Part shown: piece after piece, positions 208-28,435 of the stretch
Layout of the letters: each line of letters begins with the position of its first letter
Position numbering within the stretch: the stretch's first letter is position 1
NCBI GenBank assembly: GCA_964658305.1
Contig: OZ210885.1
Span: 24,800,001 to 24,864,000, forward strand
Direction: 5' to 3'
DNA length: 64,000 bases
From: Leptogorgia sarmentosa
Lineage: Eukaryota
The notes under the pieces: generated by a model
The model's input: the letters and a program-made list of their open reading frames with translations, nothing else
What the model was told of the DNA's origin: nothing
Databases searched by the model: none
Translations under genes and position numbers: made by a program

Positions 208-273
208 CATATTCGAAACACGCGATGTGCATATTCGAAACACGCGAAGTGCATATTCGAAACACGCGAAGTG
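208..273 (+). repeat. 3 x 22-bp tandem repeat inside the TIR (CATATTCGAAACACGCGAWGTG), mirrored in the right TIR
   Basis: Directly visible. A transposase-binding role is inference. Confidence 0.85.
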
Positions 274-513
274 CATAATTCGCAACGCGTGCTTCACATA
301 TTCGTGACACGCGCTTACATACAGACGACGCGACATTTGTTTTTTCACCGAGGCTTTCAAATTGTGTCGGCGCGGCCTGCGTTCATTACGAACAGCGGTT
401 ACCAATTTGTATTTGGGAGTACTCGATTTTGTTGTTAATTTTTAAGGCTTTGCTTTGGAAATTTTAAACCATTTTGTGATAGACTGATAGTCTGATAGTT
501 CACTTTCCGGATC

Positions 514-2009: not shown

Positions 2010-2315
2010 ATATTTTTGAGGTGTGCTGTAACTAACGTGCAGTTTCATTCATATTTAAAAGATAACTGCAGATACCATGAAACCCTACATTTAATGTCTA
2101 TGAAAATAACAACCTTTAATAAGACAACAATTCTGTTCAATAATCAGATCATTGTTTCCTTCAGCTTTTTTGCATGAATCACATTCACACAACAATGTTA
2201 ATATCAATGTTAATACTCATGTCCAATATTAATTCTGTAACATGTGCATGATTATATACATATGAGAAAGTATGTTTGATGTCAATTTTTTTCTATCCGA
2301 AAAGGAAATGTGTAT

Positions 2316-5302
2316 CTATGGATTTGGGAATCCAACCTTTCCATATTTACAAGCAATATCCATTGCCTCAAAAAATTTTGATTTTGAGCTGTGGACGGTT
2401 GGTAGCCGCAAAATTGCTGTGCATGCCGATGCAGTCGGTAGGCTATTCTTATCATCATCATCAAGAAACACGATTTTCAGCCTTTTTGCAAGACCACCAA
2501 ATGGAACAAAAGCCCAACCAGACCAGAATTGCAGGAGTGAACGGCAGCGACTATCACCTGGAAACTCCTGATCTTCTTCCTTATTCATGTAATCAAGTAA
2601 CCACTTGTACGACTGTTCTTCAGCAAAGTTACACGGTTTGACATCCAGAATCATATCTTTGAAGCTTTCTGAATCCAATGGCTTTTTGGCTGTTGCACAG
2701 AATAAGACTTCACAAACTTCTTTATTCTTTGATACAAGTTCAAGGAAACCCAGAGATTTCATACCTTCTTTAAACTCGTTGAGTTCATTTTTTCTTGAGA
2801 CAAGCAACTCGTGATGTATCAAGTGCTGAATTAGATAATCCTTGTTGTTGATAGTAATAACTTGTTCTTTAGGCCACCTAGAGGAATTGATTAGTTGCCA
2901 GAATGCTTCACTGGACTTATTTCCTTCCAAAAGAACATCGATATCTGCACTGGTTTTGCATGACTCCAAGCCAGTGAGTAGATCATGTAATAGAGATGTA
3001 CTTGCATCTAATGGGATAAGATCCTTTTTCATGAGAAATTCAATCTTTTCTTCTGGTGAGCCGACAATGTACTCGTACACATATGGGGCGACAATAGGAA
3101 AACCAACAGAAGCTTTAAGGTAAACAGAATGACTAATAATTGTCCCAGCTATCTGAAATAAAACACCCTTTGTAGCATCTTTGATTGGTATAACATTTTC
3201 TTCTTTTCCTTCAAAAAGCCTCTGCTTTACTTCTTGGAGAGCTAAGGTGAAAAATTCCACTTTCATTGCCCCACCATCCAAGCCATCTTCATTCTTAAAC
3301 GAAACACAAAGATCTTTCTTCAGGATATCAGGTTTCGACAGCATTTTCTTGTAAAATCTTATGATGTCCATCCAGATAGACTCTCTGTCAATTACAAGAC
3401 GTTCGTCATCTGATTGACCTGGAGAATTCTTCCTAATAAATAAATCAACAGCATCCTCCAGCGATTGAATATTACATTGATTCTCCATTATGAAACAAGC
3501 TGCTTCATCCACTGATGCTGACAACAAAGCTGCATCCTCCAATTCAGCTACCTCAACATCAGGAAAAATATCTTTCAGCTCTGTAGACCAAGTTGCTTTT
3601 GAGGGACCTGCCCCATCATCAGACAGTACCACAACCTCTTTACATGTAGGAGAAATGTCTTGATAATCTGTTCCTCTGTGTGTCGCGTTCGTTGTACTTG
3701 TTGATGGTCCTTCATTAATTTGCCCATTTTGACTCCAATACTCATCAACACAATTTGAGTCCTCATCACTACTCTCATTTCCATCAATGTTGACTGGATT
3801 GCATGTTATGTTGTGCATACGAAGATTTGAAATGGGTACCATTTCTTTACATTTCATACATTGAGTGGTAGGTGAAGATGCACTAGAATTCACAAACTTT
3901 TCCAATGACATAGTGCTTTTAATTGGCCTTATGTAGATAAGGGTGCTTGGACCAACCATATCCTTAAGATAGGAAATGCTATACCCATCTGAAGGTATTG
4001 GGATAAGACACAGTGTCCTATTACAACCACCACCCTCAGCTCGCAAGAACTCAAAGGCACCATCTTGAGTTGTGAGCTTTGGATATTCTGTTTCAAGAAC
4101 TTGCTTAACTTTTAAAAATTCAGCTTTTTTGTCTGGAAATACAATTCGCTTTCTTCCCAATCCAGCATCCTTAAGTTTTGCCAATTGCTTCACAGAAGGT
4201 GTAAGACATCTATTCGGGTCTGATAGCAAACAAAAATCATGTGTGTAAGATTTCCTTGGCTGAAAAAAAACTTTAGCCCTTTTGTTTCCACGATTGGGGA
4301 TCGCAAAAGGAGTTCTTTTCCCACCACAACCAAGACTTGGAAATGCTAAACTGGAAAATAATTTAGCATTACGTAAATAATAAGGCAATCTTCAGAATTA
4401 GAAGCTGAGGAAGAGCCAAAGAGCAACAGGTTACACAAGTAGGTTATTTTGAGACGTACCAACTACCCTTTTACTCTATTCAGCCCACAACCTTCATTTA
4501 GCCCCCCCCCCCCCACCCTCCTTAAGAGTCTTCTCAGGCCACTGGAAAGTATAGGGCAGGATGAGAAGAACGTAGCTGTTGGTTTTGATATTACAATATC
4601 AGAAGAGAAAACGTATTTGAAGCACAACTTCTCATTAATGACAATGGTGAAGAACTGAATGTAGTATTATACAAAATGTGCTGATGTTGTTTTATCAATT
4701 CAATATTTATATATGTACTTGATTAGGTGTATTTTAATACAAATTGATACACGTGTTGTGTGAATTGTTATACTTATGGTACCAAATTCAGGTCAAAATT
4801 TATTGAGCCCCACCCACACTCCCTAGCTAGTAAAAGTTTCAAGGGGGAGGGGGGGTTAAATAGAGGAAATACAGTACTGTATAAAATATTATTTGTCAAT
4901 TATAAATGCCAATTGGTTGAAAACCTTATTAAAATATATGTACTCCATATTAAACATGAAGATCAGAATGTTTAAAATTTAACCTCTATAAGACTATAAA
5001 TTCCTCTACTCTATGCATAACACAGAAAAGTAACATTACAGTATACGTTTGATAAAAAAGGCTAATAAATTCATGATTATGATCAACAATGCTTCCCTAA
5101 CGGACAAATCTTTTGACAAAATATTTGTGTACACGGAAATATACCTGAAATCTCGTCTCGCAGTGTCAATGAAACGGTGTCCAGTTTGTTGCGGTTGTGA
5201 AGTTACGGAAGAAACTTTAGGTTGTATGCTTGTAGTTGTACTTTGACTATTTTTTTTTACTATAACGTTTTGAATGGTTCCTTTCTCCGAATTTTCGGCC
5301 AT
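2316..5302 (-). CDS. HECT-domain E3 ubiquitin ligase of element 1 (Ubl-like + UBZ-like + CUE-like + HECT); main exon 2316-~4390, probable first exon 5302-5145
   Basis: HECT start FKNEDGLDGGAMKVEFF and end LPTASACTAILRLP...GF. CMKC..H...C finger. LKDIFPDV..LEDA CUE-like motif. ATG at 5302 with an AG|GTAT donor. The 5' exon structure is uncertain. Confidence 0.85.
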
Positions 5303-5741
5303 ATTTAATGTTGTTGTATTTTATGTTTGCCGATTTTGCCTTTTGGACCACTGTTCGACACTTGCCTCGTGTGTGAAACCGTGGTGAAACCGGAAATGCG
5401 ATAAAAAGCGGCAACAATGAAAGATTCGAATTAAATCAAGTATCACATTGTATTGCATATTATCCGCTGTTCGTAATGAACGCAGGCCGCGCCGACACAA
5501 TTTGAAAGGCTCGGTGAAAAAACAAATGGTCGCGTCGTCTGTATGTAAGCGCATGTCACGAATATGTGAAGCACGCGTTGCGAATTATGCACATCGCGTG
5601 TTTCGAATATGCACTTCGCGTGTTTCGAATATGCACATCGCGTGTTTCGAATGCTTCGCCAAAACTCAAATGAAATGCCACAACATCCGAAAGCGACGTT
5701 CGAATATATGTTATGAATTTTGTCCCCGATATAACTCCATA

Positions 5742-6022
5742 CGTTTTCAGTTGACGAACTCTTACTCAAATCAGCTGTTGTTAAAATATTGTTCCAGGAA
5801 GTGTTCACTATTACAGAATTAAATCTTTCCACCATGAAATTCTTCTCAAGCTCGCTTGCTCGCACATTAACCTGTTTCTTGGGTGATTTTACATTCACAA
5901 AACACCTTTCAAAAAAGCTGGCAACAGAGTCTAACAAGTTTTCAAATTTATGCACATGTGATTCGCCTAAATTTAACAGTTTTAACACAGCAGCCGCAGT
6001 CGTTTGTTCTTCTTTTATAAAG
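5742..6022 (-). pseudogene. Uncharacterised reading frame split by element 1; continues in 1-106
   Basis: Removing element 1 and one TSD gives an open frame ...LSKSSSTENV-LQHILQHFWSTVGSTFQNINVETDCPNAEPDSME. Confidence 0.6.
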
Positions 6023-6378
6023 TTAAAGTGCCTATCGCACTTTTTCGGTTTTTGCATATTCGTATACTTTCGACGGTTCTGAGCAACTTTGCAATTTATC
6101 TTCATAGACAAAAACTTCATCTTCCCCTTGTTTTTCGCGATCAAATTTCGATTTTTACCCCCGCCGCCTAAATGGCTATTACTGGTGACGAATTTTCGCT
6201 GATGACGTCGATAGGGTCGGAAGTAAATTTACATGCCGCGCGGAAAGCTGATATGCTAGTATACAACACAAAGTTACAAACCACGCTTACACATTGAGAG
6301 TTCTACCGTTCTACCAGTGTTCCAAGTCTGTTTTAAGTAAATATATTCGGCTGTGACGACAAAAATTGAGCCACAAGC

Positions 6379-9300
6379 ATGCCAAAACGATGCGTCGTGT
6401 TTGGGTGCTCTAATGTGCCCAATACCAAAGAGGGAATATCTGTCCACAACATACCTTTTGCCGAAGATGAAAGGCCAGAGGCAAAGAAGCGACGAAAGAG
6501 ATGGGTGAATTTCGTTGAGCAAAAGCGAGCGAATTTCACTCTGTCGAACACATCGGTGGTTTGTTCGAAGCATTTTAAGCCGGAGGACTTTGAGAGACAA
6601 TTTTTGCTGGCACCAGAGTCAAGCAAACCAGCCATTCCTCGCTTGAAACGGGATGAAATCGGAGTGTGCGTTTGGCCAACGTTGTTTGAAGAGCCAAAAG
6701 AAGCGCCAATGACGGCAAGGGAGGCTCGTCGTTTGGTAAGATTTTAAAGGAATTTGTAATATATATTCAAGGTTCTGTCATAAGAGTGTGTTCGCAAGTG
6801 ATTAAGATCGAATTTTGTTTTTGAATACAGGCCTTTCGTGCCAGATTTGGGACAACCGCAAGTGAAGAGGCCGGTGAAAGCTCGGACGTCGCAGAAGAAG
6901 GTACAGCACCTTGCACAGATGTTGGAGGAGAATCAATGGAAGTAAGACTGTATATATTGAGTTTTAATGTATCTGCATTTATTTATAATCATTGTTTACA
7001 TTATGTATATGGTATACCTCATTCTTACAGATCGAAGAACCAGAAGTGAAGGACGCTTGGATGCAGACCAGTGACATAATTGTATGCAACAATTGTAATG
7101 CATATAATAAAAAAGTTAGGTCACTGGAAAAAAAGATTGCTCTCATGGAACAACAGTTGGCTACAGACTCTCAAGAAGGTACAAAGCAATTGTTTTCATG
7201 TTCTTGATAACTGTTCCTCTATTATATTGTGTTTACTTCACTTTTTTGTCCATTGCCATGTAATAAAGATAGTGCAGCCAGTGCCAGCAGTGATGTGCAA
7301 GATGAAGGTGATGGTATTGGTGGTGATGATGACAATGATGGTGTCAGTGAAAGTGGTGATGAAGAGACTGAAGATGACCATGACACAGAAGAGGAGCCAC
7401 CATTAGAAGAGTCATCTTCAGAAACTGATAGCAGTGAAGATGGAACAACTGGGAATAGGTTAGTTATTAAATTTAAACCCATCAGTGCACATGATGTCTA
7501 CTGTAGCAAGGTTATTGTTATCTCATGAAAGATGTTTGAGTGGATTATTAGTGCACAGTATGACAGAACACCCTGTATAACCAAAACAGATACATGTTTT
7601 AGTACCCCGATTATCAAACGGTCAACAATCATTTGCAGTGCCAGCTGAAACCAACTGCAGATAATATACATAGTATTACTGGCTCAGTTATTACAATTTA
7701 TGGGTTTTTTACTTATATTTAGAGTCTTCGTGAAAGATGATAATCTGCGGACACAGCCAAAGTTTGTTGTCTTCCTGTCACAATTGTTGCTGTTGTTTAA
7801 TGTCTGTCAGTCATGCAACACACCAGATCCTTCAGTTGATGTAAGACAGACTGGGACAATGGCAATAGTTGTGACAAGTTGCAGCAATCCATTGTGCAAG
7901 AAAAAGGAGAACACATGGCGAAGCCAGCCTTCCATGCCTAGTAGTAATGTTGCAGCTGGTAATTTTCTGCTTTCCTTTGCAATTTTGGTTGCTGGAGGTT
8001 CAGCGAGCAAAGTCTTGAAAATATTCAATCATATGGGATTGTGCTGCATTTCCCTGGCAACATTTTTCCGGCACCAACAGGTATGTATTCTATTATACCA
8101 TCTCACATTCAATTCCAGTTAATGTGTTCCAGTCAGTAATAATTCCTTCACATCAGCAGATACTGTATGCAGGAACCAATGTCTAATAATGTCACTTTAC
8201 CTATTTTTGTCTAAGTTATATACTTTCTTATACACTCCTCTTACTTTGACCCAAGTTTGTATTTATTTTTTGCAGACAAAGTTGTTTCCTGCAATCCATT
8301 TATTTTGGAAGGCAAAACAGAAAGGGATGATGAACCACTTAAGAGCCCAAGCTGATGTTGTTGTGTCAGGTGATGGAAGGCATGACAGTATGGGGCACAG
8401 TGCGAAGTACTGTGCCTATACAATATTCTCATGCACAAAGACAACCAGTATAATACATTTTAATGTTGTACAGGTGATTAACATTACACAGTTATTACAC
8501 ATTGTCAGTTGGTGTTTATGGCATCAGGATTAATTCAATCTCTATCCCTCATCTTAACACTTACCCCAAACCTATGTAACCCTAGCCATAAAAGTACGTA
8601 ACTTTAAACCTTAAAACTAATAACAACAACTGATGATGTAGTCTGTGGTGTAAATTCTTCTATGCGAGGAAATATACCCTGTTCTAATCTCTCAATGTAA
8701 TATTTATGGTACCCTGTTTTGTTCCTAGCGAAATGAAGCTGGTAGCAGCCAGGCCATGGAATATATGGCCTTCCAGAGGTGCATGGACTTCATGCTAGAG
8801 GACGAAAAGTTGGAGGTCGCTACCTTGATTACAGACAGGCATTCTTCAATCCGAAAGCATATGCGAGAACGCCTTCCAAAGATAAAACATTACTTTGACC
8901 TCTGGCATTTGAAGAAAAGTAAGTTCACTAAGTTTACATGTAATGTTTTGCCAATTGCCACAATCACATGATACACTGAAATCACTTAATCACAGTTGAC
9001 AATATTTTTACTACTGTACTTTTGTCATCAGAGATTCACAAAGTTATGGACAAACTGACAAAGACAAAGGAGGGTGAATGTTTAAAGGAGTGGATCAAGC
9101 CATGTGAAAATCACTTGTATTGGTCTGCAACAACTACATTTAATGGTGATGGCAGAGTCATCCTTGCCAAATTTGAATCTTTTTTAAGCCACATTATTGA
9201 TGAGCACACAAACTTGGATAACCCCCTCTTCAATAGATGTGCTCATGATGACAATATCTTGGAAAGAAAGTGGCTTGATAAAGGTAAAGCACCAAAATTG

Positions 9301-12011
9301 TTAATCCACATTTGACAGCATTACTTACTGTCCCCAGCCATCAAACCTCTCCTCATCAGCCGGATTTGTAACTACAGTGTACTATGTTTTTTTTTGCTAC
9401 TATTAATGATATATTGTTTTATGTTATATGTTATACACAGATGGTGTTGCCTACGAGAAGCTCTGCAACGAGCTTACGAAAAAAGATTGAGGACAGGAAT
9501 CTCCCAAGCATCACCACTAGCTCAAACCAGCTGCTTGGAGGGATTCCACTCTGTACTCGACCATTTTGCACCGAAAATGATCGCCTTCTCGTTTCAAGGG
9601 ATGTACTGCAGGTCAGTTTATGTTCTACAATAAACACTACTGATATTATTATAAAAGGCTTTATTCCAAATTGATGTTCATACCATCCAACATTGCCTCA
9701 ACTCTAAACTATACAGTAGGGTTATCCTATGAAACCCCAGATGATAAAAACTTCCCACCAGCACCTTCAGTAAAATAATGTGAAATACTAGTACAGTAGA
9801 CTTAACAATATTTTTTGATTGTATTATGTCAATGTTGTAGACATATTCTGGCAACAGTACATTTCAACTGTAATCTGCAACGTGAGGTCAAGACGTTGGA
9901 GAATGGGACAGAGCAGATCAAAGTGGTTTATCCCAAATTCAAAAATGGACAGGCAACTGTCAGAAATGTGAGGATTGCCCCAAATTATGGTAAGGAAATG
10001 TTAATCAACTACTGTATGCTGCTAACACCATGCATATTCAAATAATGTCGTTATGAAATACAGTTTCTCACAATGGGTTACAGTAGTTCATTTACAGAAT
10101 ATCATTATATGTTATTATTTTAGAATATGTTCAAGAAATTTACGAAGTTTTGTTAGCATTTAACAAAGATGAATTTGATGGTGCGCTCAAAGAATTGGTG
10201 GACATGTGCCCACCCACAATGACTGACATGCTTGAGAACAAGCAGTCAGGAGAGGAAGCAGTTCAACATAGAGAGTTAAGGCAAAGTCTGTCAACTCAAG
10301 ATATACCACCCACCGAACCAGGTCAGTCTACATGAGATGAAAAAATACAAAATTAATGTATCATGATCATCTACCCCGTGTTGTCCATTTTTAGTGCAAA
10401 GTTTCAAAGAAACTTTGCAGTATTGTGATGAGTGGGGAAAATTCACATCAGTCATCGAGTAATCGAGTCATCGAGTAATCGAGTCATCGAGTAATCGAGT
10501 CATCGAGTCATTCAGTCATAGTGTAAACTCCGGGGGGAGTGTCCCAATTTCTCTTGATGTGCGAAACTCCGTAGTGTACCGATGTCCTTTCAATTTTTAA
10601 GCAAAAATTATCCAATTGTAACGTTATACTATTGTTCATCATTGTTTGCAGCTATTTGTATGGATAAGAAATTTAACTGGGGAAGTAATGTAATCTAAAA
10701 TGCCTCGAGTTATAGTACACAATGCCGCAAAGCCCCTCCGGAATTTGGATTTTTGCGAAAATTGCAAGCTCAGCACGTGTTCGTGGGATGAAATATTTGT
10801 GTAATACAATATGGCGGACGCTAAGGAGTGCGACATTGAATCAGTAATGTGGCCAAGTTTCAACAATGTTTGAGCATGTTGCCAAAGCGGTTAAAATGTT
10901 ATTTGAATATCTGCGATGAATCTAGAAAACAAGTATGGGTTGTCATGAACAAAAATAGCCATAGCCCATACTATCAACTGCTGCCGTGGATATTATAAAT
11001 CTGCATACATTTTTAGTTTGCCGTCTTTGCCTTGAGGGTACACTTAATGCAGTAACACAGTAAACTCGTCGCAACAAGAAAACCATAATTTTAAATCTTA
11101 TTTAGTTCATACGATTGATATATAATGGTTGATATATTCGCTTCACGCATTTATTTGAACGTGTTTGTTCCATTTGTTCTCGCCATAGTCCCAGCCTAGC
11201 TGTTATGGAAATATTCCCATTCATGTACTCCCAATGTAAAAGAATAATTTACTACAATCAAATTCAGCCAGTTGCTCGCTTTTGCCTTGTAATATATTTT
11301 AGTCGACTGAATAGACGACATGATTCATGATCATACTGATAGAAAATAGTCAACAGGACAACAACTTCAGTAAGCTTGGGTTGCTTGTCTAGATTGTTTA
11401 CATATTAGTGGCGGCGACTCTTCAATTTCGCAGCAAGTAGAATTAACTATATATGTAGGCGAAGAAAAGTAAATTTAACGTTGGCCTAAAATTGTGATAG
11501 ACTGAATTTCTATTACAACGCAGAGGTAGCCTACAGGTTGTACATTTGTCGAGTGCTTTATAATCGCCCGTTCATTGTTACACTCCGTTTTATTATTATA
11601 CCGTGAGGGTCAGAGGTCAGAGATTCAACAAAATAATGTCGAGCACGCGAAATTTGAACGTGCGGATTTCCTTTTTTGGCTATAAAATCTTTTAAATTAT
11701 TTTATTATACTACATCAAGCTTTTCTTTGAGCTGATGTTACATGGAATGATTTTTAACGGCAATTCGGATCACAACAGGGCCGAACAGGCCGCCAAGCGA
11801 CATTAGCTTTAGCTCGATATCTTCGTAGAAACTTTGCACTATCCTTGGATTCCTAGTTATATTTCATGATAATACTATTCTTTCTAGTTCCTCCTCTTGT
11901 ACCTGTACAACCTCAACAGCCCTCTCAAACAAGAAAGAAACCTCACTGTACAGAGTGTGGTAACCCCATGAAAGGGCATCGATTGGTTGATTGTCCTCGC
12001 AATCAAAGATG
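6379..12011 (+). CDS. Multi-exon THAP-domain Kolobok-type transposase, partly degenerate
   Basis: THAP MPKRCVVFGC...W...VCSKHF. Exons with GDGRHDSMGHSAKYCAY, LITDRHSSI, HYFDLWHLKK, NHLYWS, TSCLEGFHSV...FAPK, ATVHFNCN. Last exon ~11888-12011 has HCTECGNPMKGH in a shifted frame. GT-AG introns. Confidence 0.8.
10390..11858 (+). mobile_element. DINE-1/HINE-like non-autonomous Helentron-type element in the last intron of the Kolobok transposase
   Basis: subTIR TAGTGCAAAGTTTC at 10392-10405, adjacent inverted copy GAAACTTTGCA at 10409-10419, 8-mer tandem array, 3' subTIR GAAACTTTGCACTA at 11828-11841, short hairpin TCCTTGGA, then CTAGTT. T-rich flanks. Confidence 0.7.
10451..10510 (+). repeat. Tandem 8-mer array GT(C/A)ATCGA
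   Basis: Directly visible, ~7.5 copies. Confidence 0.9.
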
Positions 12012-12659
12012 ATAGGATAAGAAATGGGCTGCATGTTGGAGTCCACATGGCTGTATATGTAGCATAATTTATTTTGATGTTACTGTTTCATGAAACCCTA
12101 ATAAAAAAAACATTCCTTAATTAACAGAAAGACAATCATTTGTATTCTCAAACGTCGCACACGGAGGTGTTACGTCTCCTTTAAAAAACCTCACGACTCA
12201 CGAATTTTGTATTTTTATTTAGCAACTCAACTGGACTACTTCACTGTTTTTTACTCCCTTCTAAAACCACACCCCCTATACTCTTCGCCCGCGCACAGGC
12301 TGTCTACAGGAGTGGCCCTAAACCCACCATTCTAATATAACAATAACATGAAGCTTTTTTACAGTATGTCACACAAACAAACAAATCAAAACTGTATAGT
12401 AAGAATAGTAAGGCATTCATATTGGTGTATAGAACTTACCACAAAATCCCCCATCCTCGAAGAATTCTTTCCGGATGGCATGGTATACACATGCTGGTAA
12501 TGGAATTCTTTTCCTTCCAATGGTACCATAGACAAGCTGTATAAACTGTCTGTAAGCAACACTTCTGAAGAAACTATAAAGTAGCTATAAATTATTGTTT
12601 GCAGACATTGTATTTTTATTATTAGTATTCCAATTTCTGATAGTGATATTATAAACAAA

Positions 12660-13298
12660 CATACGATTGTTCAGATGAAATTGCTTCATATTTTCTTCCA
12701 TCAATTGTTTTAAACTTTCGCGCAGCGAGTCTAAGAGCCCATCAATTTAGGCAAACTGTTTGGAAACCAGGATGGAGCGTGATGCACAAAGGGGCTTCTC
12801 CAACTTCTTCGACTACAAGTTCGCTTTCTAAAGCTGGTTGACAGCCACCGATTTCATGACAGCATTGGCACTACTTCGGATTTTGTAAATACTCTGTGCT
12901 GCAGTTGCCACATTTGCACCTTAAAATATGAAAATTGGAATTCCATTGACAATTTCTGTTTATTTCTAGAATTTTGATATTTTGCCTGCGTAGTATGTAG
13001 TTTTAAATGTCGCCTTAGACATTTGTCGCCTAGTTGTTATTACATACCATGTATCTGAAGCTTGTAACCCATCTAAGCGGTTTTGAAGAACGTGAACGCG
13101 TTCTTGTTCGGCATTCTTTCTGGCTCTATATTACCTGCTCCATTCTTCGTCCGCAATAGGTTCTCCCATGTATGGCTGAATGAAGTCATCGACATCGTCG
13201 TCATGATTTGTTACAAGTATTTCCACTTCTACTTCTGTGGTGTCTGCATTACTTTCCCTTGAGCCTGTACTGGACTTTGATGATTCAGAGGACGACAT
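12660..13298 (-). pseudogene. P2X7 C-terminal ballast-like (KolX-type) Kolobok accessory gene with in-frame stops
   Basis: Exon 1 has IQPYMGEP and a TAA at 13131-13133. Exon 2 reads WCKCGNCSTEYLQNPK*CQCCHEI...CITLHPGFQTVCLN*WAL. Confidence 0.75.
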
Positions 13299-14061
13299 GA
13301 TTCCACAGTCCACACAATTCAAGCCAAAATATTCGATAATATATCTATCAGACTGATCACTTCTCGCACAAGGCTGCTTTGTTTACTGTACAACATGGTC
13401 TCATACTCAGAATTACCGATAATCAGTAAGTCAGCATCTCCCTAGAATTACTGATAATCATACATTCTGAAACTATCCCCAGTAATTTATACAGTAGGCG
13501 CAAGCGCAACCGTATCAAAATGGCGGAAGAACAAGGAGCGTTCGAAAATGTCTCTACAGGTAAAAATATTATGAATAATTCATTAGTTTTTACAGTGTTA
13601 TAAAAGTAATTTGCATAAGATGCATATTGAAAGATTAATAACGAAGGTCTTTTTTATATATCGCCACGAAAGGCAATTTAACATGTAATACTAAATGAGT
13701 GGATGTACTGTCACATTAAATGTGTGTTGTTGTGTATTGATTTTTTTACGCATTACACCGGTTTGGACGGTATGGGGCGCCGTTTGTTTCAATAATACTT
13801 CTTTCAAATATATAATACTTGTTTCAATATATAATACTTCATTTCATATTCATACAACTTTGTGTTGAATATATAAAGGTTGTTATCCGAAAATATAAAC
13901 AATATCTCACTAAATAGAGTTCACAGATCACATAATAGAACTTTGTTTCAAATATACAACTCTGTTCCGAATATAAAACTTAGTTTTAAATATATAAAAC
14001 TTGTTGTGCAATACCTAATTAGTTACATGAGGCACAACATGAAGTACTGACGCTCGTAAAC

Positions 14062-16804
14062 ATGGCCGACGAAGCGTGTCGATCTTCTTCATTTGCATCA
14101 CAAAATAGTCTGGTAAACCAGCTCTGCAGACTTGCCGATACCTTACGCGAACAAAATAATACCACCCAAAGACAGGCAGAAACAAACGACAATAGAGGAG
14201 AAACTGTTGGGGCAGCTATCGCTCGGTTGTTTCCAAGTGCAAATGGCAGATCTAGCTGCTCTAGCACTAGCCGTAACAATGCTGCATTAAGAGGTCAAGC
14301 AACTACTTCAAGCAGTCAAAGTGACACAGATGACAGAGCACCAAGAAGTAGAAATACCATGTCAGTGCCTCCTCGGTTTGACCCTAGGAATACAACAACA
14401 GAAAGTAAACGAAAGAAGCCATATTCTAAAATAAAGTCTGTTGCCAAATCTGCCACAGGCGCAGTAATGAAAGATGTGTTTCTTTTACCAAATCCGAGAA
14501 TGAAAGACGTTCCGCGCGGTCGTACTAGGGAGGAACTGTACGTTCGCGGATTTGTCGCAACCGCCTTCAGTCTTACAAATGAACTGACGGCCTCTGAAAT
14601 ACAAACACAGTTTGCTTCATTGTTTAACAATAAATTAAGAGGAAGACCATTTACCATCGTGAGAGCTGTCGGAAACAAGATCGTGGACATAAATTTGTCT
14701 CAGGAGATCAATGGAAAGATCCTTAAGCATATTTGTGGACAAGGCCCAGTGTATTTACGATGCTCACGCCCCACCGACACCGAATATGCATGGGTGGAAG
14801 AAGAGGAATCAGAAGAAGAAAGTGTGGGTGTTGAAAGTGATGAAAATGATCTTCCAGAAAGTGGAATAGGCAGTGTTAATAACACCGTGTCTCCAATTTT
14901 GACTCATTCATGCAGTTCCAGCATAGTGCATGAGTCAATCACAAGCAGTGAATTAGATGCCATTGAATCACAGTCCCCTTCTACATCTAGCACCAGTTCA
15001 ATAGGCACTGTTGCTTGCCCAACATGTAACCGAAAATATCCTTTGACTGAGATTGCAGAGCATGCTGATCAATGTTGTGAGAATTCAGAGGCATCTCTAT
15101 ATGGTACCTGGGTCCTAGACTCTATAGATTTGACACATGATGATATATCGGATGATAATATTCGTGAGAATGATGTCCCAGTAAACATAACTGCTGTCCC
15201 AATAGACACAACTGCCAGCCCAACTGAACTGATACAAGCAGTTGCACACAATATATCAGATGAAACACAGTTGGTATCTATTAGAAGAAAATTTATATGG
15301 GAGGACTATGTAAACTGCAGGAAAAAACCATGGTTTAAAACAGATGCATGGCTGCGTGTTAATTTCATTGGGGAGGAAGCAGTAGATGGTGGTGGACCCC
15401 GTCGTGAGTTTTTTACAGGTACGTCACTATAGGGAAATAAAAAATGGTAATTGCTATGGGTATAAAATAATTATTACATTAATTCATCAGTAGATATTGT
15501 GCTTTGTTTAGAAATGCTTGATGTGATTGAATCCCGTCTTTTTGTAAGTGAGGCTGAAGATTATTGCAACCTGTCTGGAAAGGTCCCAGATGATAGCACT
15601 GTTGCAATGACCAATGGCCATTTCAAAGTTGCTGGAGAAATAATGGCAACCTCAATAGTCCAAGGTGGTCCTGCACCAGATTTCTTAACAGACTGGGTAT
15701 ACAAGTACCTTTCATCTGGAATAGATGGTATCACTGTTGATGAAAGCAAAATCCAAGATCAGTCAGTCACACAACTTATTAACAAAGTGAGTCTGTTTTT
15801 TCCACTTTGTTAATCCCATTCTTATCAAGTAGAAAAATTATTTGTATGCCATTATGATTACTGTAATTTTGATGATGATATAGCTTTTTTGCTTTTCATT
15901 TGTAGCTGAAAAGTGTAGACACAGACAAAGCATTTCAGGACTTGCTTGTATGTGATGATGTTTTAGATCAGCTTTCAAAAATTGGGTATAGAGGTGTGCC
16001 ACACAGGGAATTACTGAAAAACCGAGATACTATAATAAGGTATGATTATGAAGAGTACGCTTGTGAACAAAATATTTCACTTGGCAATTATAAGTTCATC
16101 CACCATGGTGAATGTTTTTTTAATTAAATATTTACAGTCAAAATGTTTACCCATAGGTCCTTGTTTATGAAGTACTATGTCACATCAAAGTTGCCAATGC
16201 TTGATCAGTTAGTGGAGGGCCTGAAAATGTTTGGTGTACTGGAGCTGATCAAAAAACATGAAAACCAGATGAAATGTGTTTTCACGCCTGTTACTAACAG
16301 CTGCATTACAGTTGGGCAAATCATTGACCTCATGTCACCAAGCTATAGTGATAGCAGACAAATGAAAGACAAAGAAATTAACACCTATAAAGCTATGTGT
16401 GATTTTGTAGAGGAATTATACCATAATGGTGAGTATTGGTCATATTAGCTTTTACTGCAAATTGTATTAAGATGCAGGCACAACGGTTGGATCAACTTGG
16501 ACTAATTGGGCTTGGACTGATTTGTTTCACTGATAATATTTTAGCAATTCTGGGCTGTGATTTGACAGTCGGTGACCTGCTCAAGTTCATTACAGGCGTG
16601 AGGAAAATTCCACCACTGGGTTTGCTAAAGAAGATCACAGTTTATTTCATCCATGAATGTCGTGATGACCGATGCAAATGCCGTCCAAAAGCTTCAACAT
16701 GTGATTTGCACCTTAGATTGCCTGTCCATTATCAAACATCAGAAGGCATGACTTCAGCATGGGTGTCTGCTCTCAAGGAATGCAAAGGGTTTGGCCACAT
16801 TTAA
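14062..16804 (+). CDS. HECT E3 ligase of element 2, 5 exons (14062-15418, 15512-15786, 15906-16039, 16157-16428, 16545-16804), apparently intact
   Basis: Phase-compatible GT-AG introns. UBZ4-like VACPTCNRKYPLTEIAEHADQC. HECT FIGEEAVDGGGPRREFF, LLKFITG...PPLG, RPKASTCDLHLRLP...GFG. Confidence 0.88.
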
Positions 16805-17315
16805 ATATTTAGAACTCATAGAAGAGGACACATATAAAACATTTAAATTTACATTTATTTGCATGTTGCGTTACATTGTTTTTGTTTTGTTAGTCACTTA
16901 ATCATTGACTTGGTTTTCGCAGTGATACACATGATTTGTTATCTTAAAATGGCATTGAAGATAGCAATATCATTTCTCACAGACTTTCACAATCACTCTA
17001 TATGCAGGCAATTAATACAGGTGCTGCCTGGCAATTAATTGACTAATTGTAAATATGGTCACTGTGCTAAATATTTGTACATGTAGCATTAATGCAGAAC
17101 TGTTATCTACAGTGAAAAACACGACTGTTCATGTATTATATGTACATATGTTCACAATTAATTTATTTAAAAAATTGTGGAAACACCCTGTTAGTTTAAT
17201 TGATTTCATAACAACTCTGAGCTCTCAGCCCATCAGATTTTCAGGCCATTAATTAAACTAACAAGGTGTTTCTACAAATTGTTATAATTAATTTTATTAT
17301 CACCATGTAAACATC

Positions 17316-19036
17316 CTAAAATACTATCCCAAAATTTTGGTCATCTTCAAGGGGATTAATGGTGAGTAGCAATACAGCCTCCTGTTCATCAGTGAGTTGT
17401 ATTGATGATCGAGGCACTGTAACATGATTGTTTGTCTGCAGTTCAGTGAGTGGCCCATAATCATCAACTCCATAGTTAACAGAATCGACAGCTGCACTTT
17501 CTAATGCTAAACGCACAGCACGTTGGCTTGAATTAGCTTGGCTGTAAAAACCTTCAATCCATATTTGGTAAGGTGTCTTGTTCTGCTCTGAGCTGAGTGG
17601 GTGGTTATTCCACTGTAAAACAAATTCTTCAATGGATCGTCGGATTCGTGGCAAGTATACAAAGTGTAGTGCATACATATGGACTTCATTCAAAGGATCT
17701 AAGATTCCCTGTGATTCCATAAAATAGAATAGTCGATGATATATACCAACAAAGGATTGACGTGCATCACGCCAGAGGCGTTCAATTCTTTGGTTATGTA
17801 CGGACAAACCTGTTAGTACAGGATTGGATATTGTTCCATGATGACCGAGCAACCACTTTGCAACTTCTATGTTTTCAGTTCCATGATCACATCTAAGGCG
17901 ATGTGGCACATGAAACTGATTTATAGCATTAGCAAATAAACCCATGACTGTGTTTGCTTCATTGTTTGTGTGGCAACCAAGATATACAATTGTACGTGAA
18001 AAACCATCAATTCCACCGTGAATTACTATGCGCCAGCGTATGAGTTTGTGATTCCATCAATATGCCTATTTTTGAAAACAAAACAATGTTGGGAAACAAT
18101 GAAGTATATAATTGAGATATTTCAACAAGGACATTGTTCAACAATGGTAATTTAATCCAGAAAACACAGGTAGGGGTGTCAGGATTAACATTCCTAATTT
18201 TCAAAAAAATGTGTCAGCACTGTGTCCAAGGGGTAAATTTTTAAAAGATCTTTTGAGGATGTGGAATGAAATGGTCCAATTGATACATACCACAAACTGT
18301 TTGGGCCAGGGACTCTATAAACTCGTCTCTTTATTCTAAGCCGCCTTCTACATTCAGTTCCAGCAGGATCAACTCGCAACATTGACTCTCTTATTCGCCT
18401 CCGTTGGATCCGCAAACCCCGACCAAGGAGCGCACCTCTCATCATAACTTGGCCACAATTGGGCGATTGCTCAACTATCCCCTGGACCACACCGTCCAGT
18501 TCTGAATCAGATATATCATTGTAACCATGCTCATATCCAATCTCAAGCTCTTCCCGGCGCCTGTACAAAGTAGCTCTGGAAATACCTATCAGTTGGGCTA
18601 TTTTGGTCCAAGAGAAACCAATCTTTCTCAGACCTTCAATTTGCTCCTTGGGTACATGGAACTTTGGTCTTCCTCTCTGTCTATCCTCATTAGTTTCCCT
18701 ATCCTCATTAGTTTCCCTTTGGCACTGAAAGTGTATTTCCGTTTCTCGCTCCTGAATTGTTTGAAATACTTCGGCATATCGGTTTTTAACTTCTTCATAG
18801 CCAGCAAGAAGTTCTTGTAGCTTTTGCACTATTTCTTGGGAAATATTATCTTCTCGAGAATTAAACATAGAAAGGAAAATGATAATCCAGGTACATATTC
18901 CCTCAGAAGAAGTCAGCATATTATCGGCTTCATTTAACTCTTGTGTTAGAAAATTCGATTTAAGTTGTTGATAAAGCGGGGGTAATTGCAAAAGGAATTG
19001 AATAAATTCGTCTAACACAACCTGTTCGTCTGCCAT
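17316..19036 (-). pseudogene. IS3-like transposase of element 2, 2 exons (19036-18291, 18065-17316), 1-bp deletion after the first catalytic Asp
   Basis: GRPKFHVP, HTH WTKIAQLIGISRATLYRR, W|HIDG(N)HKLIRW with GGAAT where GGAAAT is needed, LRCDHGTEN, NQRIERLWRD. Confidence 0.85.
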
Positions 19037-19468
19037 GATGTTTTTCTTTTTTCCTGCGCGCCACTGAGCTAACGTGTACTTCATGTTGTGCCTCATGTAA
19101 CTAATTAGGTATTGCGCAACAAGTTTTATATATTTAAAACCAAGTTTTATATTCGGAACAGAGTTTTATATTTGAAACAAAGTTCTATTATGCGATCTGT
19201 GATCTCTGTTTAGTGAGATATTGTTTATATTTTCGGATAAGTTTTATAAATTTTCCAACAACCTTTATATATTCAACACAAAGTTGTATAAATATGAAAT
19301 GAAGTATTATATATTGAAACAAGTATTATATATTTGAAAGAAGTATTATTGAAACAAACGGCGCCCCATACACGTGTGACTCGCTGTTTACGAGACGAGA
19401 AGACAAAAGGTATGAATTATTCATGGTTTATTATCAGCAAGGTCGAAAGAACATTAATATAACATGTA

Positions 19469-19625
19469 CAGGTGTCCCAGAAAAAAGTCACCTCTATAGA
19501 AATCAGCTCTTTTGTTGTCAAACGTGCGTTGTTATGCCTTTGAGAATATAATTGATGATTCACGATAACACGAGGTTAACAACAAAACAGGATTTCTATA
19601 GAGGTCACTTTTGGGGGACACCCTG
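19469..19625. mobile_element. Small Tc1/mariner-type MITE
   Basis: TA|CAGGTGTCCC...AAAAGTCACCTCTATAGAAATC versus GATTTCTATAGAGGTCACTTTT...GACACCCTG|TA. Confidence 0.7.
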
Positions 19626-20114
19626 TATAGGAAACTCACTCGGTGGAGTCGAAGGGGGGTTCCTATTCCCATTTCCAGCCCAAATTTTGACTAAATCCCA
19701 TCGTCCCAGGGCACAAATCTCATCATCTCAGTAGTTGCCTTGCTCAAATCGTAATCCCATTCCAATTTTCTATTGTTTTTTGGCCAATGATTCACAGTCC
19801 AGGTGTATGAAATCCCATTTTCCCAGCCAAAAATAAGCAAATCCCAGATCCCATTTTACCCCTTCAGGACCATCATAATTGTAACGGAGGGTCTATCATT
19901 GGAGCTAGCTGGCAGCTCTTCAAGTCATCAACACTCAACATGACAAGTTTTTAATGGTGTTGTATAATTTAAACAGGGTGCACTGAAAAACTCCGATGAT
20001 CTTACATTGTGTTTAAGTACTCCCTTAGTAAATAGTGTAATGACAGACAATTTTATAAAAAATCTCTGATCAATGCCTAACTTATCTAACTATGTTGTGT
20101 AGACTGTAGTCAAG

Positions 20115-23100
20115 ATGAGTCAGGACCCAAAAGATTTGCTCAGAGCTTGCGCACAGAGTTTAATGAATGCAGTGAGCAATCTTGAAAACAGGACATCTCC
20201 ACAAGCGTCCAGACAAGAAGCTAGTAGGGAAGTAGCCATTTCAAATTCAGTGACAGAGTCAAACAGTTCACAACAACAACTGCAGGCAAATCGGTCAACA
20301 AATGCACCAAGTCCCATAGAAGAACATCGAAATCTATTTGGTTATCGACCACCTTCTGTGACCAGGAACAGCAATAGACAACCTGCTTCAAAACGTAGAA
20401 TGGTTACAACATCAACTGGAGAACGTGTATCCATTCCAGTCCGTAATACATGGTCAAGAACTTTCGTTTGCTTACCAAATAAGAATGCCACAACTGTTCC
20501 ATCTGCCTCACAAAAGATAAACATGGCTCTTGCAGGATTGGATGAAAGAACAATTTGCTTCACAAAAGGAGGAAACAGTGAACATGTTCATAAGAAGATC
20601 TTGGAAGCATTTCCTATGCTTAGTGATGTGGGTGGTTACCACATTTTGCGAACTGGGGAACGTGGTAATCGGCAGTTGTTAGCCCTCACTATTCCTCCAG
20701 GTGGATATACAGTGTCTTTTCTGAAATCTACCATAGCATCAGCAAAGGGTTACATACGACCTTATCAGAAAGACATTGTTATAGACAACAATGCAGTCTT
20801 GAGCCAAGGTCAAACTCAGGTTTGCAATTTCTTAATTGTTCATTTTCAGTTACCATACTTGCAAACCTTTTTTTGTATGATATACATCTCAGTATGCTCT
20901 ATTACATGGTAAATTTTGTGAGCCCCTATATTTACAATTCCTCACTTGATACATGTCTTGGCTTTAGATTCCGTCTAGTCCAAAAGTGGCATGTGTAAAT
21001 TGCCATGCATCAGTTGCAATGGACATGTTACAATCACACGATGAAGTTTGTCGAGGAGGGAGTTCAACCTCAGGACAACGCACCACTGATGAAAACAGGT
21101 AATATAATGTTTGTAAAAAAAGATTCAACATGTTTTTTGTATCTACTTTGCAAATGAAATATCACTGTTGTGTTAAATATGTTGCTTGCAGCCACTCAGT
21201 GACCACTGTAGATACTGGCACTGAATTGGCCAATCAGCAATTAGCATAGAACATTTCGAAGATGTTCAAGGTGGAACCAGATCAATAATTTTGCAACTAT
21301 TTTTGGTTACAAACTTACTAGTGCCATTCTTGTATCTTTGAAGGGCTATATTACATCATTTCATGTTACCATGACCATGAACTCATAGATAGGGAGTAAA
21401 ACCCTTACAAAACCACCACCAGCAATGTGGTATGGAAGGGAATGCACAGAGACAGAAACAGTGCTAATAACGGTTCTTCTGTAGTGACGTTGATCTTGTG
21501 GAAGCAACGGAAGAGAATTTTGAAGAAACAGGTAACACAGTTTTTTTTTGTAATGGTTTGAAATGTTTTTGTGTGCTAGCACACATGCGCAGCTAGAAGC
21601 CAAATGTGGATGTTTGGATGTCCACTGCCAGGCGCGCTGGGTGTTCATGAAAACCCGATCGTAGGTTACTAACGGAAATATATAATATATCTATCACTGA
21701 TCAGTAATTTTCATCAGGCTAATATATTATCGGTAATATCAAAATTCAATCGGAACATGTGTTCTAAATCTAGCAGCGTTTATCAGTCGATTCGATCGAC
21801 CTTTGAAATGATCATGCAAGCATTTCAGCGTTGTTTCAGAATATTTATATATTACAAAAACGTTGCATTCTTGAATCCTTGTTGCATGATTGCAAAATGC
21901 ACAAAAAAATGAAATTTTACAATGGTTATGTTCTGTGGTAGCTCAAAATAAACTTCGTGGTGTCAACCAACATGGCACCCAAGTAGGTTATGATGTAACG
22001 TGCAAACAATGAATGCTCGTGCCGGCACAGGCTAGCCACATGTACGCGCTATGCGTACCTATTTTCACCAGAATGGCTATACCCCAGTATGTTATTCCTT
22101 AACTATAGGTTTCGGTCAACTGAAGAACATTTTTCCAAACATGGATTCCAACGCAATAAGGCAAGCACTTGCAAGTGCTAATGGATCCATCGATTTGGCG
22201 ACTGAAACTCTGCTAGATAATGACGGTAAATTTATATGGCATTGTTTTCCCTTCATAACTATTCTTAGGGAACGCAAACTGTGTTGCAGCGTGTTATATT
22301 TTTTCTTTTGTTCTATGGTTTAATCCATTAATTAATGTCGTTGGTATTTTTGCATTCTTACACAGTGCTGAATGATGAGATTGAAATTTTATCGACGGTC
22401 GGAATTGGTGCTGCTTGCAAAAGTATCACAGTGCTAAAGGGCGACAAATTGGACGTAGATGCGTTCAGACAACAAGCTGTTGATGAAACATTGCAGAGGC
22501 AACGTTTTTTTGTATCAAGAGAGGATGGTATCGAGGAGCTGAAGAAGGATATTCTGAGCCATTACAAAGATAGCCAGTGCAAGTTGAAAGCTAAACCTCG
22601 TGTAAGATTTGAGGGTGAAGAAGGTGTGGGGAGTGGCCCCGTTCGGGAGTTCCTGTTGTGTGCCATGCTAATTCCCCAGGACGGCATTGGTGGAACCAGA
22701 AGACCAGTTATATTTTTTGAAGGTGAAGAAGACCATCTTGTTCCAATTCATGACCAAACATTGAGGTGTACTGGTTCATTCAAGGCAATCGGGCGTATCA
22801 TTGGTCATTCTTTTATTCATGGTGGTCCGGTGTTGTATGGCCTCTCCCCAGCGGTGAAGCGTTACTGGGCGTTAACAGCTGAAGCAGGTGACCGAGATCC
22901 AAATTGTGAAAGTCTAACTGGCAGTATTAGTATCTCCGATTTGCCCGATGTCGATCTAAGACAACGTATTTCACAGGTACAGTAATGTATGATTTATCAG
23001 ATTTAATAAAGAAACATGCATTGAAGTTTTTACTCTTGTACAAACATTTTTTTAATTATATTCTACGTAGATAGGTATTTCATGCTATTTTGATGAATTG

Positions 23101-24181
23101 TTTCAACTGCATGAAAAGAACAAAAGTATTTTGCCTCTTTTTCCCCGAACAAAGTACTCAGCAAAAAGTGGCGCGGTTTGTTACTGTAATATTTTCACTT
23201 AATGTGTTAACCCTGAGTATATACCATTCCAGCTTGAAAGTCTCGAACCTCATGTAGAGTTGCCATCGGAACTTAACGATGCGATCACACCGTACCTTTT
23301 CGAGTCTGGACTTGACATCAGTCGTTTGAACTCCGACAGGCGGCTGGCCATTCAAGGTCTTCTAATATATCAAGTAATCGACAAGAGAAAGCGAGAACTA
23401 GATGAAATAGCTAAGGGTGAGTAATTATAACTGTTTGGTAATTCAGCTATAGTTGAGTTACTTGAGTAGTTCTCAGAATTCTCAATTTATTTACCATTTT
23501 GCAAGGCATGAATGAAGTGGGATTACATGATTTTATTGGAAAATGTACACCTGAAGTTTTGGATTCCATATTTCCCACGTCTGCGAAAAGGCGAGTCACT
23601 TTTGAGCAAGTGGAAAACGCCATGATTTTCGTGGAGACGGAAGGGCACGAGCAAACTATCAGCTACTGGTATAATTATTTGCACAAGCTAGCCAAATATG
23701 ATACAGGTAATGTGATATTGTGGCAAACATCTAAAACATTAAAAAGCACAAACTGTAACAATTTTGTTTAATCGGTAACAAGCTTGAACATTATCTTATA
23801 TCATGGTATGCTGCCCCAGCCACATTTTACATATTTGCCTCTTCCAGCTGGACGTATTTCCCCTTTTCTGTTGTATTCTATAATCATAACCATTTAATTA
23901 TAACCATTGGAAAAATGGAAACAAATCTAAATTTCTTGCTTATATTTCTAGGCAAACCTTCTCTTACCGACCTGTCTTGTTTCTGGACAGCCAGTAATCA
24001 GCTTCCATCGCGGGGTGGAACGATACAGGTGAAGTTCAACGATGGCGACAGCAAGTTGCCTCTAGCGGAAACATGTTTTTCGATTATCACGCTCCCCACA
24101 GTCCATAAATCATTTGAAGACTTTTGTAAATCCATGGACACTGCGCTTCTTTATGGTTCTATGGGGATTGATATTCCGTGA
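20115..24181 (+). CDS. HECT E3 ligase of element 3, multi-exon (20115-20819, 20969-21098, possible small exon ~21192-21270, 22110-22225, 22365-22976, 23233-23416, 23506-23706, 23952-24181)
   Basis: Ubl-like WSRTFVCLP...GYIRP. Zn finger VACVNCHASVAMDMLQSHDEVC. CUE LKNIFPNMDSNAIRQALASANGSIDLATETLL. HECT FEGEEGVGSGPVREF...LPLAETCFSIITLP. Confidence 0.82.
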
Positions 24182-24335
24182 TGCAGTAGTGTTAGATAAG
24201 AGATACTAAATTTAATTAATGTTTTGTTAGTGTTCTTCCACAAACTGATTCGTAAGCACCATGCAGGAAAACGTTGCAACTAATGTATTTTACAATTTAT
24301 GGGCACGGGTTGTAAGTGTTTTATTTATTGGAACA

Positions 24336-26202
24336 CTAAACTGTGTGAGTGTTGACATATTCCATTGTCTCCAAATATATGTCGATACCGTAGGAATCGC
24401 TGTTCCTCAGTGGGTCGACAGTGCGAGCAAGTTCATCAACATGTTCTCTGGGCAATGGACAAGCTATTTCTGGCACGTTCACGGCATCAACATCAAAATC
24501 CTCGGCTGGAACAGGGCTTTCCCAATCTATTCCATATTGCTCAAAGTCGTCCTGTAAAATATGAGATATTACTTTTAGTTTGAGAGTCTAGTAGATTGTT
24601 TGTCGGGCGATGGAATTGTGGATTAAGAAATGCATGAAATCTCATTTCATTTCTGTGATGGCTCGGTATGATCTGATAATGCATAGTATTACTCCCTATA
24701 TGTTACATTCCAACACCCCAAATGATAAACATGTGAGGTCAGAATGCAAATAATGTTTTATCAAGGTTCTAATTTCATTTATATGCATTGTGCATTTTCT
24801 CACCGGTGTGGCAGGCTCGTAAGCGTCACGTATTGCGGTATGCTGAGAGTTTCTTAACTGAAGAAGACCCTGAATATAAAGCTGCATTGGACTTCTATTC
24901 CCAGCAGTTCTGATTTTATGCTGAATGTAGCCTTGCCTCCAGCTTTCTATATGTCGGTTAATTCTCGGAATGTATACATAATGCAACGCGAAAAGGTGGG
25001 ACGGATTTGATGAATCCAGTATACCATTATCCTCCAAATGGTAGAATAAATTGTAGTAAATGTAGGTAACACCTTCGAACAGATCTCGCCATAACCTCTC
25101 AATCTGTTGATTATGGACACTTCTGCCTGTAATCATACTTCCCCGGCCTGGGCCTCGCAATGGGTGCTGCAGCATGTAGAGCGAAACTGCGGTATTTTCC
25201 CCTCCCTTATCCGAGCGGACACGAGATGGCAATCCATACGCGTTTACTGCATCCAGGAAACAGTTCAAAACGATTTCAGCACAGTTTCTTCCATTGCATT
25301 TCAAAAAGACTGGGATTCTGGTGTATCCGTCAATTCCGCCATGTATTACAAGTCTCCATCTAAAAAATAAACAATTACAAACTTTCATGTCACTCACAGG
25401 AAATGATCAGATGGTAAATAGCCTTTTATATACCTTTAACATTGCAGACGTGACCTCACATACAAATCAATATTTTGGTTCTGTTTATTTTGTACAGCTG
25501 CATGATGTTGATTTCCTACCTTATTAGTTTGTGGTTGCCATCTATGTGCCATAACGCCAGGGGACCTGAGACACGATATTGCCTCCTTGGCGTTAATCTC
25601 AACCACCTTACAGCAACCCCTTGTGGATCAATCCTCTGCAGTGTTTGTCGTACTCGCATTTGAGATGGCCTCAGCCCAGCGACAGCAAGTTGGGAAATTA
25701 CCCTGCGATATCCAGCATTGGGAAATTCTTGTAAAATTTCCCTTACTTTATTATCAAGCTCTTCGTCTGACAAAGGGGGTGAGTATTGGCTTTGTGACAG
25801 CCCGTAAGTACGCATTCTGCGAGATATTGTACTTTGAGATACACCCAATGCTTTTGCAATGTCAGGAACTGAAAACTGATAGCTGAGGAAGTAATTTAGC
25901 TGTTCACGACTAATATCAAAACAGGGGCGTCCTCGCTGACCAGACTGAAAAATGTCTACTGTGTATGAGTTTTCAGTTTGAAGCTCTTCTACTTGCTGCA
26001 AATAGTGCATTGCCAGTGTGACATCATGCTGAATTGCATCATCAACAAGGCTAATGTCGCATAAGCGTATAATATGAGAAGCTAATTGTTCAAGCCTAAA
26101 AATAATGGCATCAAGCTGATCATTGTCTGGGTTCTCCAGCTGCCTCAAAATGTCTAACAAGGCCCCCCGTAACTGCACGCTCAAAGATTGTACTTCACTC
26201 AT
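24336..26202 (-). CDS. IS3-like transposase of element 3, 3 exons (26202-25520, 25359-24804, 24551-24336), apparently intact
   Basis: [46 protein letters not shown]-terminal YGIDW...[14 protein letters not shown]. Splice phases are consistent. Confidence 0.9.
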
Positions 26203-26417
26203 TGAAACATCATATCCAAATATCCAAAAATATAAAAAATTGTCACAGCTGAAAGAGAATAATTTATTCTGCATTTAGAATAGCAGATGTTTTCAGGTAC
26301 TGTATGCTGTTCTATGGGGGGGGGGGTGTCCCCTATTCCGCTATGTGCATTTTTTGTCCTAAAGTCGGCATGTCAAGTACACATGGTTCAGTAGATTTTG
26401 TCCACAAATAGGTCAAG

Positions 26418-28402: not shown

Positions 28403-28435
<33 letters not shown>

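Follow-up and report, generated by a model that had tools for sequence, protein, structure and literature searches.

DNA transposons of the IS3EU/GingerRoot type are described as having TA..TA termini, a 6-bp target-site duplication (TSD) and an integrase-like DDE transposase without HHCC, and they have been reported in corals (PMC10045372, PMC6839031). Fungal IS3EU elements carry an alpha-kinase or TET gene, and in rust fungi the alpha-kinase lies opposite the transposase, with no HECT gene described (PMC12730594). HECT, ubiquitin and ligase go unmentioned in the main text of PMC10045372 and PMC6839031, as does HECT in PMC12730594. Among HECT ligases, UBR5 (UBA) and HUWE1 (UBA, UIM, UBM) have a ubiquitin-binding module on a flexible tether ahead of the HECT domain, and the UBA of UBR5 holds the acceptor ubiquitin (PMC13196369, a review whose main text does not mention CUE, UBZ or G2E3). 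The Class IV HECTs of animals, G2E3 and GL-Metazoa, are highly divergent, G2E3 having RING/PHD-like fingers and an inactive HECT (PMC3673628). Here, we analysed a stretch of 64,000 nucleotides from Leptogorgia sarmentosa (contig OZ210885.1, positions 24,800,001 to 24,864,000; hereafter the window), which is rich in transposons and contains three IS3EU/GingerRoot-type elements (E1, E2 and E3), each with a DDE transposase gene and a convergent HECT ligase gene. Unlike UBR5 and HUWE1, these ligases are small (730-765 amino acids), transposon-borne and equipped with CUE or UBZ4-like readers, and unlike G2E3 they keep the catalytic cysteine; unlike the fungal elements, E1-E3 carry a HECT ligase. 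We found no published report pairing IS3EU with a HECT or ubiquitin ligase in a search of the literature outside Repbase entries and paper supplements, either of which might mention a HECT gene.

What is new here is the domain anatomy of these ligases, namely an N-terminal domain predicted to be a beta-grasp of a new family, fingers of two types and a reader that can be exchanged. On this basis we propose that they are element-borne HECT ligases in which the beta-grasp domain would grip the target and one reader would hold ubiquitin, while a chain is built, the likeliest substrate being the transposase of the same element, a model to which we assign a probability of roughly 0.4.

The E1 ligase gene (2316..5302, minus strand) comprises two exons (5302-5145 and 4350-2316) with an open frame of 730 amino acids, or 743 with an alternative acceptor at 4389, while that of E2 (14062..16804, plus strand) comprises five (14062-15418, 15512-15786, 15906-16039, 16157-16428 and 16545-16804) with an open frame of 765 amino acids and GT..AG at every intron; both are inferred splice models. 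The E3 gene (20115..24181, plus strand) is modelled with eight exons and GT..AG introns. Pfam recognises HECT in E1 (2316..3410, minus strand; 67.8 bits), in E2 (38.5 bits, C-lobe) and in E3 (26.2 bits) against a cut-off of 23.9. The catalytic Cys lies near the C-terminus of all three, within TASAC (2421-2435) in E1, KASTC in E2 and AETC in E3, and the residue at -4 is Phe in E1 and E2 and Ile in E3. The HECT domains themselves are only distantly related (E2-E3 identity about 22%).

Upstream of these domains, the three ligases share an N-terminal domain (N-domain; E1, 3918..4265, minus strand; E2, 14467..14766, plus strand; E3, 20442..20768, plus strand). The original prediction, made from the letters of this stretch without database searches, had guessed a beta-grasp fold for this domain, and the predicted models of E1 and E2 support the guess. 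The AlphaFold model of the E1 N-domain with its finger (24 rows) has a predicted local distance difference test score (pLDDT) of 90 and the order strand, helix, strand, helix, strand, strand, helix, strand; compared with 48,161 chains, it matched best the ubiquitin-like domain of TBK1 (Z 7.3, root-mean-square deviation 3.0, 85 residues aligned), and the list of 50 matches, which left the finger uncovered, consists mostly of beta-grasp domains. For the E2 model (18 rows; pLDDT 70) the best Z was 6.2 (root-mean-square deviation 3.1, 79-84 residues aligned), and both lists are dominated by Ubl, RA, UBX and FERM-F0 domains. The E3 domain would have the beta-grasp by homology, as the E1 and E3 N-domains are homologous (profile hidden Markov model E 1.4e-16). 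The claim that all three share the domain thus stands directly for E1 and E3, and E2 is joined to them only through a deep profile of 175 sequences (hhalign probability 82, E 1e-5), a shallow profile having failed (probability 0.7).

The predicted topology is that of integral ubiquitin-like domains (TBK1 ULD, SAP18, the RING1B C-terminal domain, UBX and USP7 UBL; Z 5.5-7.3), from which the N-domain differs in its length (about 115 amino acids), an extra helix between strands 1 and 2, identities of 4-18% and the absence of a diglycine. Since it ends in YIRP or YLRC and continues into a linker instead of ending in a diglycine, it would be an integral ubiquitin-fold domain and no conjugatable modifier. 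Searched against 1.84 billion representatives, the N-domain profile retrieved 2,103 clusters (E<=0.001), of which the best 150 were inspected, and conservation in the family falls on Gly, Pro and Tyr positions. None of the three isolated N-domains matched a Pfam family, across 148 members Pfam returned nothing except one weak DIX match, a sequence search of the PDB with the profile gave nothing under E 1.3, and in the Atlas E1 hit unnamed clusters only, with 0.78 as the best named-filter match of E2. The N-domain, as modelled, is therefore a new beta-grasp family, and it is the constant part of these ligases, because it is kept in all three despite their distant HECT domains and belongs to a family of 2,103 clusters. 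The fold gives no function, and the N-domain is itself no ubiquitin reader. Ahead of the beta-grasps (for example at 14062-14460 and 20115-20440), relatives have two helices, the N-terminal one amphipathic and the other short with (L/A)FP or LFG at its end, and a basic patch; these loosely defined patterns were found in 62/92 and 76/92 relatives, and the segment is a candidate for a further interaction or nuclear-import module.

The motifs quoted in the original prediction all sit where it had placed them, on the minus strand in E1 and on the plus strand in E2 and E3, among them a CxxC-x11-H-x3-C finger in each ligase. This pattern has exactly three occurrences in the six-frame translation of the window (127,996 residues), one in each ligase gene. 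Its spacing is non-diagnostic, being common to UBZ4, RNF125, TRAF-type (TRAF6, FLN29) and Sgf11 fingers, and the further claim of a single UBZ common to the three ligases is not borne out by the residues within it. The E2 finger (type B; 15016..15078, plus strand) is UBZ4-like, with C-P-T-C ... H-A-D and WRNIP1, RAD18 and FAN1 as its best PDB matches (E 0.04-0.11). WRNIP1 contacts ubiquitin via Pro21-Val22 and Asp37 (PMC4370504), and in the E2 lineage the beta-loop Pro and the Asp two residues after the His are kept in 15/15 sequences; judged by these residues, the E2 finger likely binds ubiquitin. By contrast, the C2HC finger of E1 (type A; 3801..3860, minus strand) is without the UBZ4 Pro and Asp, and that of E3 (type A; 20992..21051, plus strand; C-V-N-C ... 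H-D-E) lacks the Pro and has Glu for Asp. Across the E1/E3 lineage Pro was found in 2/64 and Asp in 1/64 (2/32 and 1/32 among 50%-cluster representatives), and both together in 0/60.

Finger A instead resembles RNF125, TRAF-type and Sgf11 fingers. It keeps residues like L109, M112 and R113 of RNF125, that is, L/M-R before the His, and an Arg or Lys stands two residues before the His in 56/64 type A fingers versus 0/15 of type B. In RNF125, R113 packs the C2HC finger onto the RING (PMC4944129), whereas finger A follows a beta-grasp, and its sequence matches to fingers of these kinds are weak (E 0.01-0.4). Pfam (E<=1) preferred zf_C2HC_14 in 15 of 24 E1 relatives and zf_UBZ in 2. The slots differ as well: finger A follows the beta-grasp after 19-38 residues (median 22) and finger B after 78-130 (median 99). 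Because one protein, P0035, carries finger A and finger B in series, the two are different modules, and by sequence and position types A and B appear to be distinct modules in different slots and no single shared UBZ.

The hallmarks of a CUE domain are FP and a C-terminal dileucine-like pair. A CUE-like motif had been noted in both E1 and E3, and the E3 exon (22109..22225, plus strand; LKNIFP, IFP ... LL) passes the Pfam cut-off on its own (39 bits versus 21.1), with Tollip (E 0.007) and CUEDC1 as best PDB matches, while the CUE-like module of E1 (3480..3590, minus strand; LKDIFP, IFP ... FI) draws its support from its family, relatives such as P0030 (25.5 bits) passing where it does not. FP is kept in 48/51 members of the family. 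Among 46 proteins with an N-domain and a HECT start, near-duplicates kept and proteins whose HECT start the pattern missed excluded (E3, P0056, P0123, P0130 and others), 32 have the order N-A-CUE-HECT, 11 N-B-HECT, one N-A-B-HECT and two N-A-HECT, and none (0/46) holds both a CUE and finger B. Since CUE and UBZ4-like modules never co-occur, most of these ligases likely hold one reader, a CUE in E1 and E3 and the UBZ4-like finger in E2. The reader-writer architecture of the original prediction is thus a fair description, with one likely reader per ligase and no UBZ plus CUE. In P0035, an E1-type beta-grasp with finger A is combined with finger B and a HECT start of E2 type (91 versus 16 bits); as its finger B goes with the E2-type HECT start, the reader travels with the HECT domain. 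Another gene model, P0055, fuses an E2-type beta-grasp fragment with a reverse transcriptase and is probably a mis-joined annotation.

As the beta-grasp is constant and the reader is variable and follows the HECT domain, we infer that the former binds the substrate and the latter holds the acceptor ubiquitin. In the proposed mechanism, a basic patch ahead of the beta-grasp would direct the ligase to the nucleus, finger A would pack on the beta-grasp unit much as the RNF125 finger does on the RING, and the beta-grasp would bind the substrate, for which the cognate transposase is the first guess. The CUE of E1 and E3 or the UBZ4-like finger of E2 would hold the acceptor ubiquitin while the HECT domain extends the chain, so that the reader would serve chain building as the UBR5 UBA does. 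Chains on the transposase could then remove the integration complex once it is spent, or hold transposase levels down. The convergent arrangement of transposase and HECT gene in 3/3 elements, a count made inside the window, supports the model. A scan of viral and prokaryote contigs for the transposase found none, and a metagenome scan for the ligase family gave five loci, with a transposase match in 0/5.

Several points weigh against the model. First, the transposase as substrate is a first guess that rests on gene linkage, and the ligase is not needed for mobility of the superfamily because rust-fungus IS3EU elements carry an alpha-kinase instead. Second, the assignment of the readers has its own weaknesses: the E1 CUE-like module alone scores 12.3 bits, below the Pfam cut-off, the E2 finger stays under the zf_UBZ cut-off (24.4 versus 25.6 bits) and has Thr or Ser where WRNIP1 has Val22, and some relatives are readerless (P0017 and P0193 in the architecture count, P0123 and P0130 by eye). 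Third, the 46 proteins stem mostly from two clades, including near-duplicates of E1 and E2, and the CUE/UBZ exclusion seen in these sequences amounts to about two lineages and one mosaic, no set of 46 independent cases. Finally, with values of 6-7 the Z scores are middling and single out no subfamily, and the Foldseek check of the N-domain listed the same fold class on top with no match at E<=0.001.

A more specific and tentative version, with the odds against it, holds that these are IS3EU clean-up ligases: the proposed beta-grasp family would bind the cognate transposase, and an exchangeable CUE or UBZ4 reader would let the HECT domain build chains through which the spent transpososome is stripped from the DNA. 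In this version such elements would also be the source of many orphan 'G2E3-like' animal genes. If true, the clean-up ligase would be a eukaryotic analogue, encoded by the element itself, of ClpX, which remodels MuA. It would bear on the removal of eukaryotic cut-and-paste transposases from product complexes and on the role of second genes in two-gene transposons. The compact ligases would also offer separable parts, namely a substrate-binding domain, a ubiquitin-holding module and a catalytic Cys; they add a beta-grasp family of more than 2,000 clusters that is missing from Pfam, and their natural CUE-for-UBZ swap informs the role of readers in HECT enzymes.

A doubtful alternative is anti-silencing, in which the ligase would ubiquitylate host silencing or heterochromatin proteins, picked through SUMO in some lineages, and so keep the element expressed. 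RNF4 and PIAS have type-b SUMO-interacting motifs with the core [VI]DL[TS] (PMC3901395), and this core sequence occurs in 9/56 linkers versus 1.0 +/- 1.0 in shuffled ones (0/1000 shuffles reach 9). E2 is included, with SIDLT (15121..15135, plus strand) as a possible motif of this kind followed by acidic residues. This motif was however picked post hoc, there as elsewhere, and is found in a minority of linkers, one of the nine lying at the end of a CUE helix, while broader patterns for SUMO-interacting motifs are unenriched (14/37 versus 13.2 shuffled; 6/56 versus 6.5). Two chromatin adaptors, SAP18 and the C-terminal domain of RING1B, are among the weak top Foldseek matches, which are non-significant. 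Other DNA transposons carry TET dioxygenases that are thought to counter silencing (PMC12730594).

The original prediction suggests that the ligase may be targeted through UBZ and CUE to ubiquitinated chromatin or PCNA where transposition leaves breaks; there it would steer repair. We consider this unlikely. In its favour are the Pro and Asp of the E2 finger and its matches to WRNIP1, RAD18 and FAN1, and in Mgs1 the equivalent Asp is required for damage-related functions (PMC3245944). However, the E1 and E3 fingers are without these ubiquitin-contact residues of WRNIP1 and RAD18, so that the claim falls back on E2, and a UBZ signals ubiquitin binding and not the identity of the ubiquitinated partner. 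Moreover, the slot is occupied by a CUE in most relatives, and CUE is not known to be a damage-focus module. The CUE swap and the pairing of the P0035 UBZ with an E2-type HECT appear to fit chain building at least as well as targeting to PCNA or chromatin, and the readers probably serve the former rather than the latter.

In the E3 ligase copy the reading frame is lost between finger and CUE, which the original prediction overlooked. A stop lies within exon 3 (21192-21270), which does not continue the frame, and the copy is probably broken, with a product ending after the finger. An N placed at 21213 leaves a stop in exon 3, and a 26-nt mini-exon that would be in frame has a weak acceptor and is unsupported. 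Run X3 holds a diverged E3-type copy with a length difference in exon 3. A 198-bp in-frame deletion variant (20616-20813), which drops the second half of the E3 beta-grasp, is present in 5/5 runs, DNA-like ones included. Contigs of X4 and X5, runs of one study whose library kind is not on record, skip the ligase introns 22977-23232 and 23707-23951, which X3 retains, and E3-type copies are therefore likely transcribed. X4 and X5 contigs also skip a plus-strand GT..AG intron (25414-25527) inside the minus-strand E3 transposase gene, indicating an antisense transcript. On the minus strand, a single X5 contig lacks an intron (24159-24803) that reaches the last exon of the E3 ligase; convergent E3 transcripts seem to overlap. 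Read cover of E2 in X4 and X5 is near nil and uninformative.

It is very unlikely that the ligase is a mere passenger of host-gene origin that plays no part in transposition and whose domains are relics: the frameshift of E3, the deletion variant that removes half its beta-grasp and the existence of fast-evolving G2E3-like HECT families in animals (PMC3673628) are in its favour, but decay of single copies is usual in transposons, the E1 and E2 ligase frames are open, the N-domain family is large and conserved, and three very divergent elements keep the same domain order and the catalytic Cys.

The proposed chain-building ligases lie in elements that fit IS3EU/GingerRoot by their sequence features, namely termini and terminal inverted repeats (TIRs) in E1 and E2, a TSD in E1 only and the transposase. 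All three transposases have an N-terminal helix-turn-helix (HTH) and match rva_4 (E 1e-69 to 1e-75), an integrase-related DDE core without HHCC. Named relatives in Paramuricea and Oculina, and the Atlas, point to a cnidarian for the window as a whole. E1 (113..5741; no strand is assigned to the elements) has TA..TA ends, TIRs of about 290 bp, compared with 100-150 bp for GingerRoot (PMC10045372, PMC6839031), and a 6-bp TSD, CGTTTT (107-112 / 5742-5747). Its transposase gene (514..2009, plus strand; HTH and rva_4 core, main open reading frame (ORF) 651-2009) is probably frameshifted, the N-terminal helical part (514-~690) being out of the main frame. E2 (13771..19370) ends in TATGGGG..CCCCATA with TIRs of about 280-295 bp; its flanks GGACGG and CACGTG did not match as a TSD, and its transposase (17316..19036, minus strand) has two coding exons. 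One X4 contig (depth 3.7) matches the flank up to the left end of E2 at 13770 and then continues into other sequence, a weak hint that the insertion is polymorphic. E3 probably extends over 19371..32877, bounded by an inverted repeat (19371-19427 / 32821-32877), with no target duplication seen at these putative ends, and its transposase (24360..26202, minus strand) lies in three coding stretches. The right end of E2 directly abuts the left inverted repeat of E3 (19369-19371), with no spacer and no TSD for either. The right end of E3 contains a long terminal repeat (LTR) retroelement (26616-32826), presumably BEL/Pao-like, whose LTRs are 99% identical and whose frames are broken.

Elsewhere in the window, a fourth and more distant transposase of the same kind (62626-63852) is 28% identical to that of E1, and a THAP-domain ORF is followed by exons of another DNA transposon (6370-9633). 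Inverted repeats of about 1.6 kb that are 100% identical surround a reverse-transcriptase-like ORF (42914-48241; ORF 44531-46315), which we take to be Penelope-like. Between 52956 and 58021, reverse transcriptase, tyrosine-recombinase-like and gag-like ORFs on the minus strand, accompanied by split inverted repeats, form a presumably DIRS-like element.

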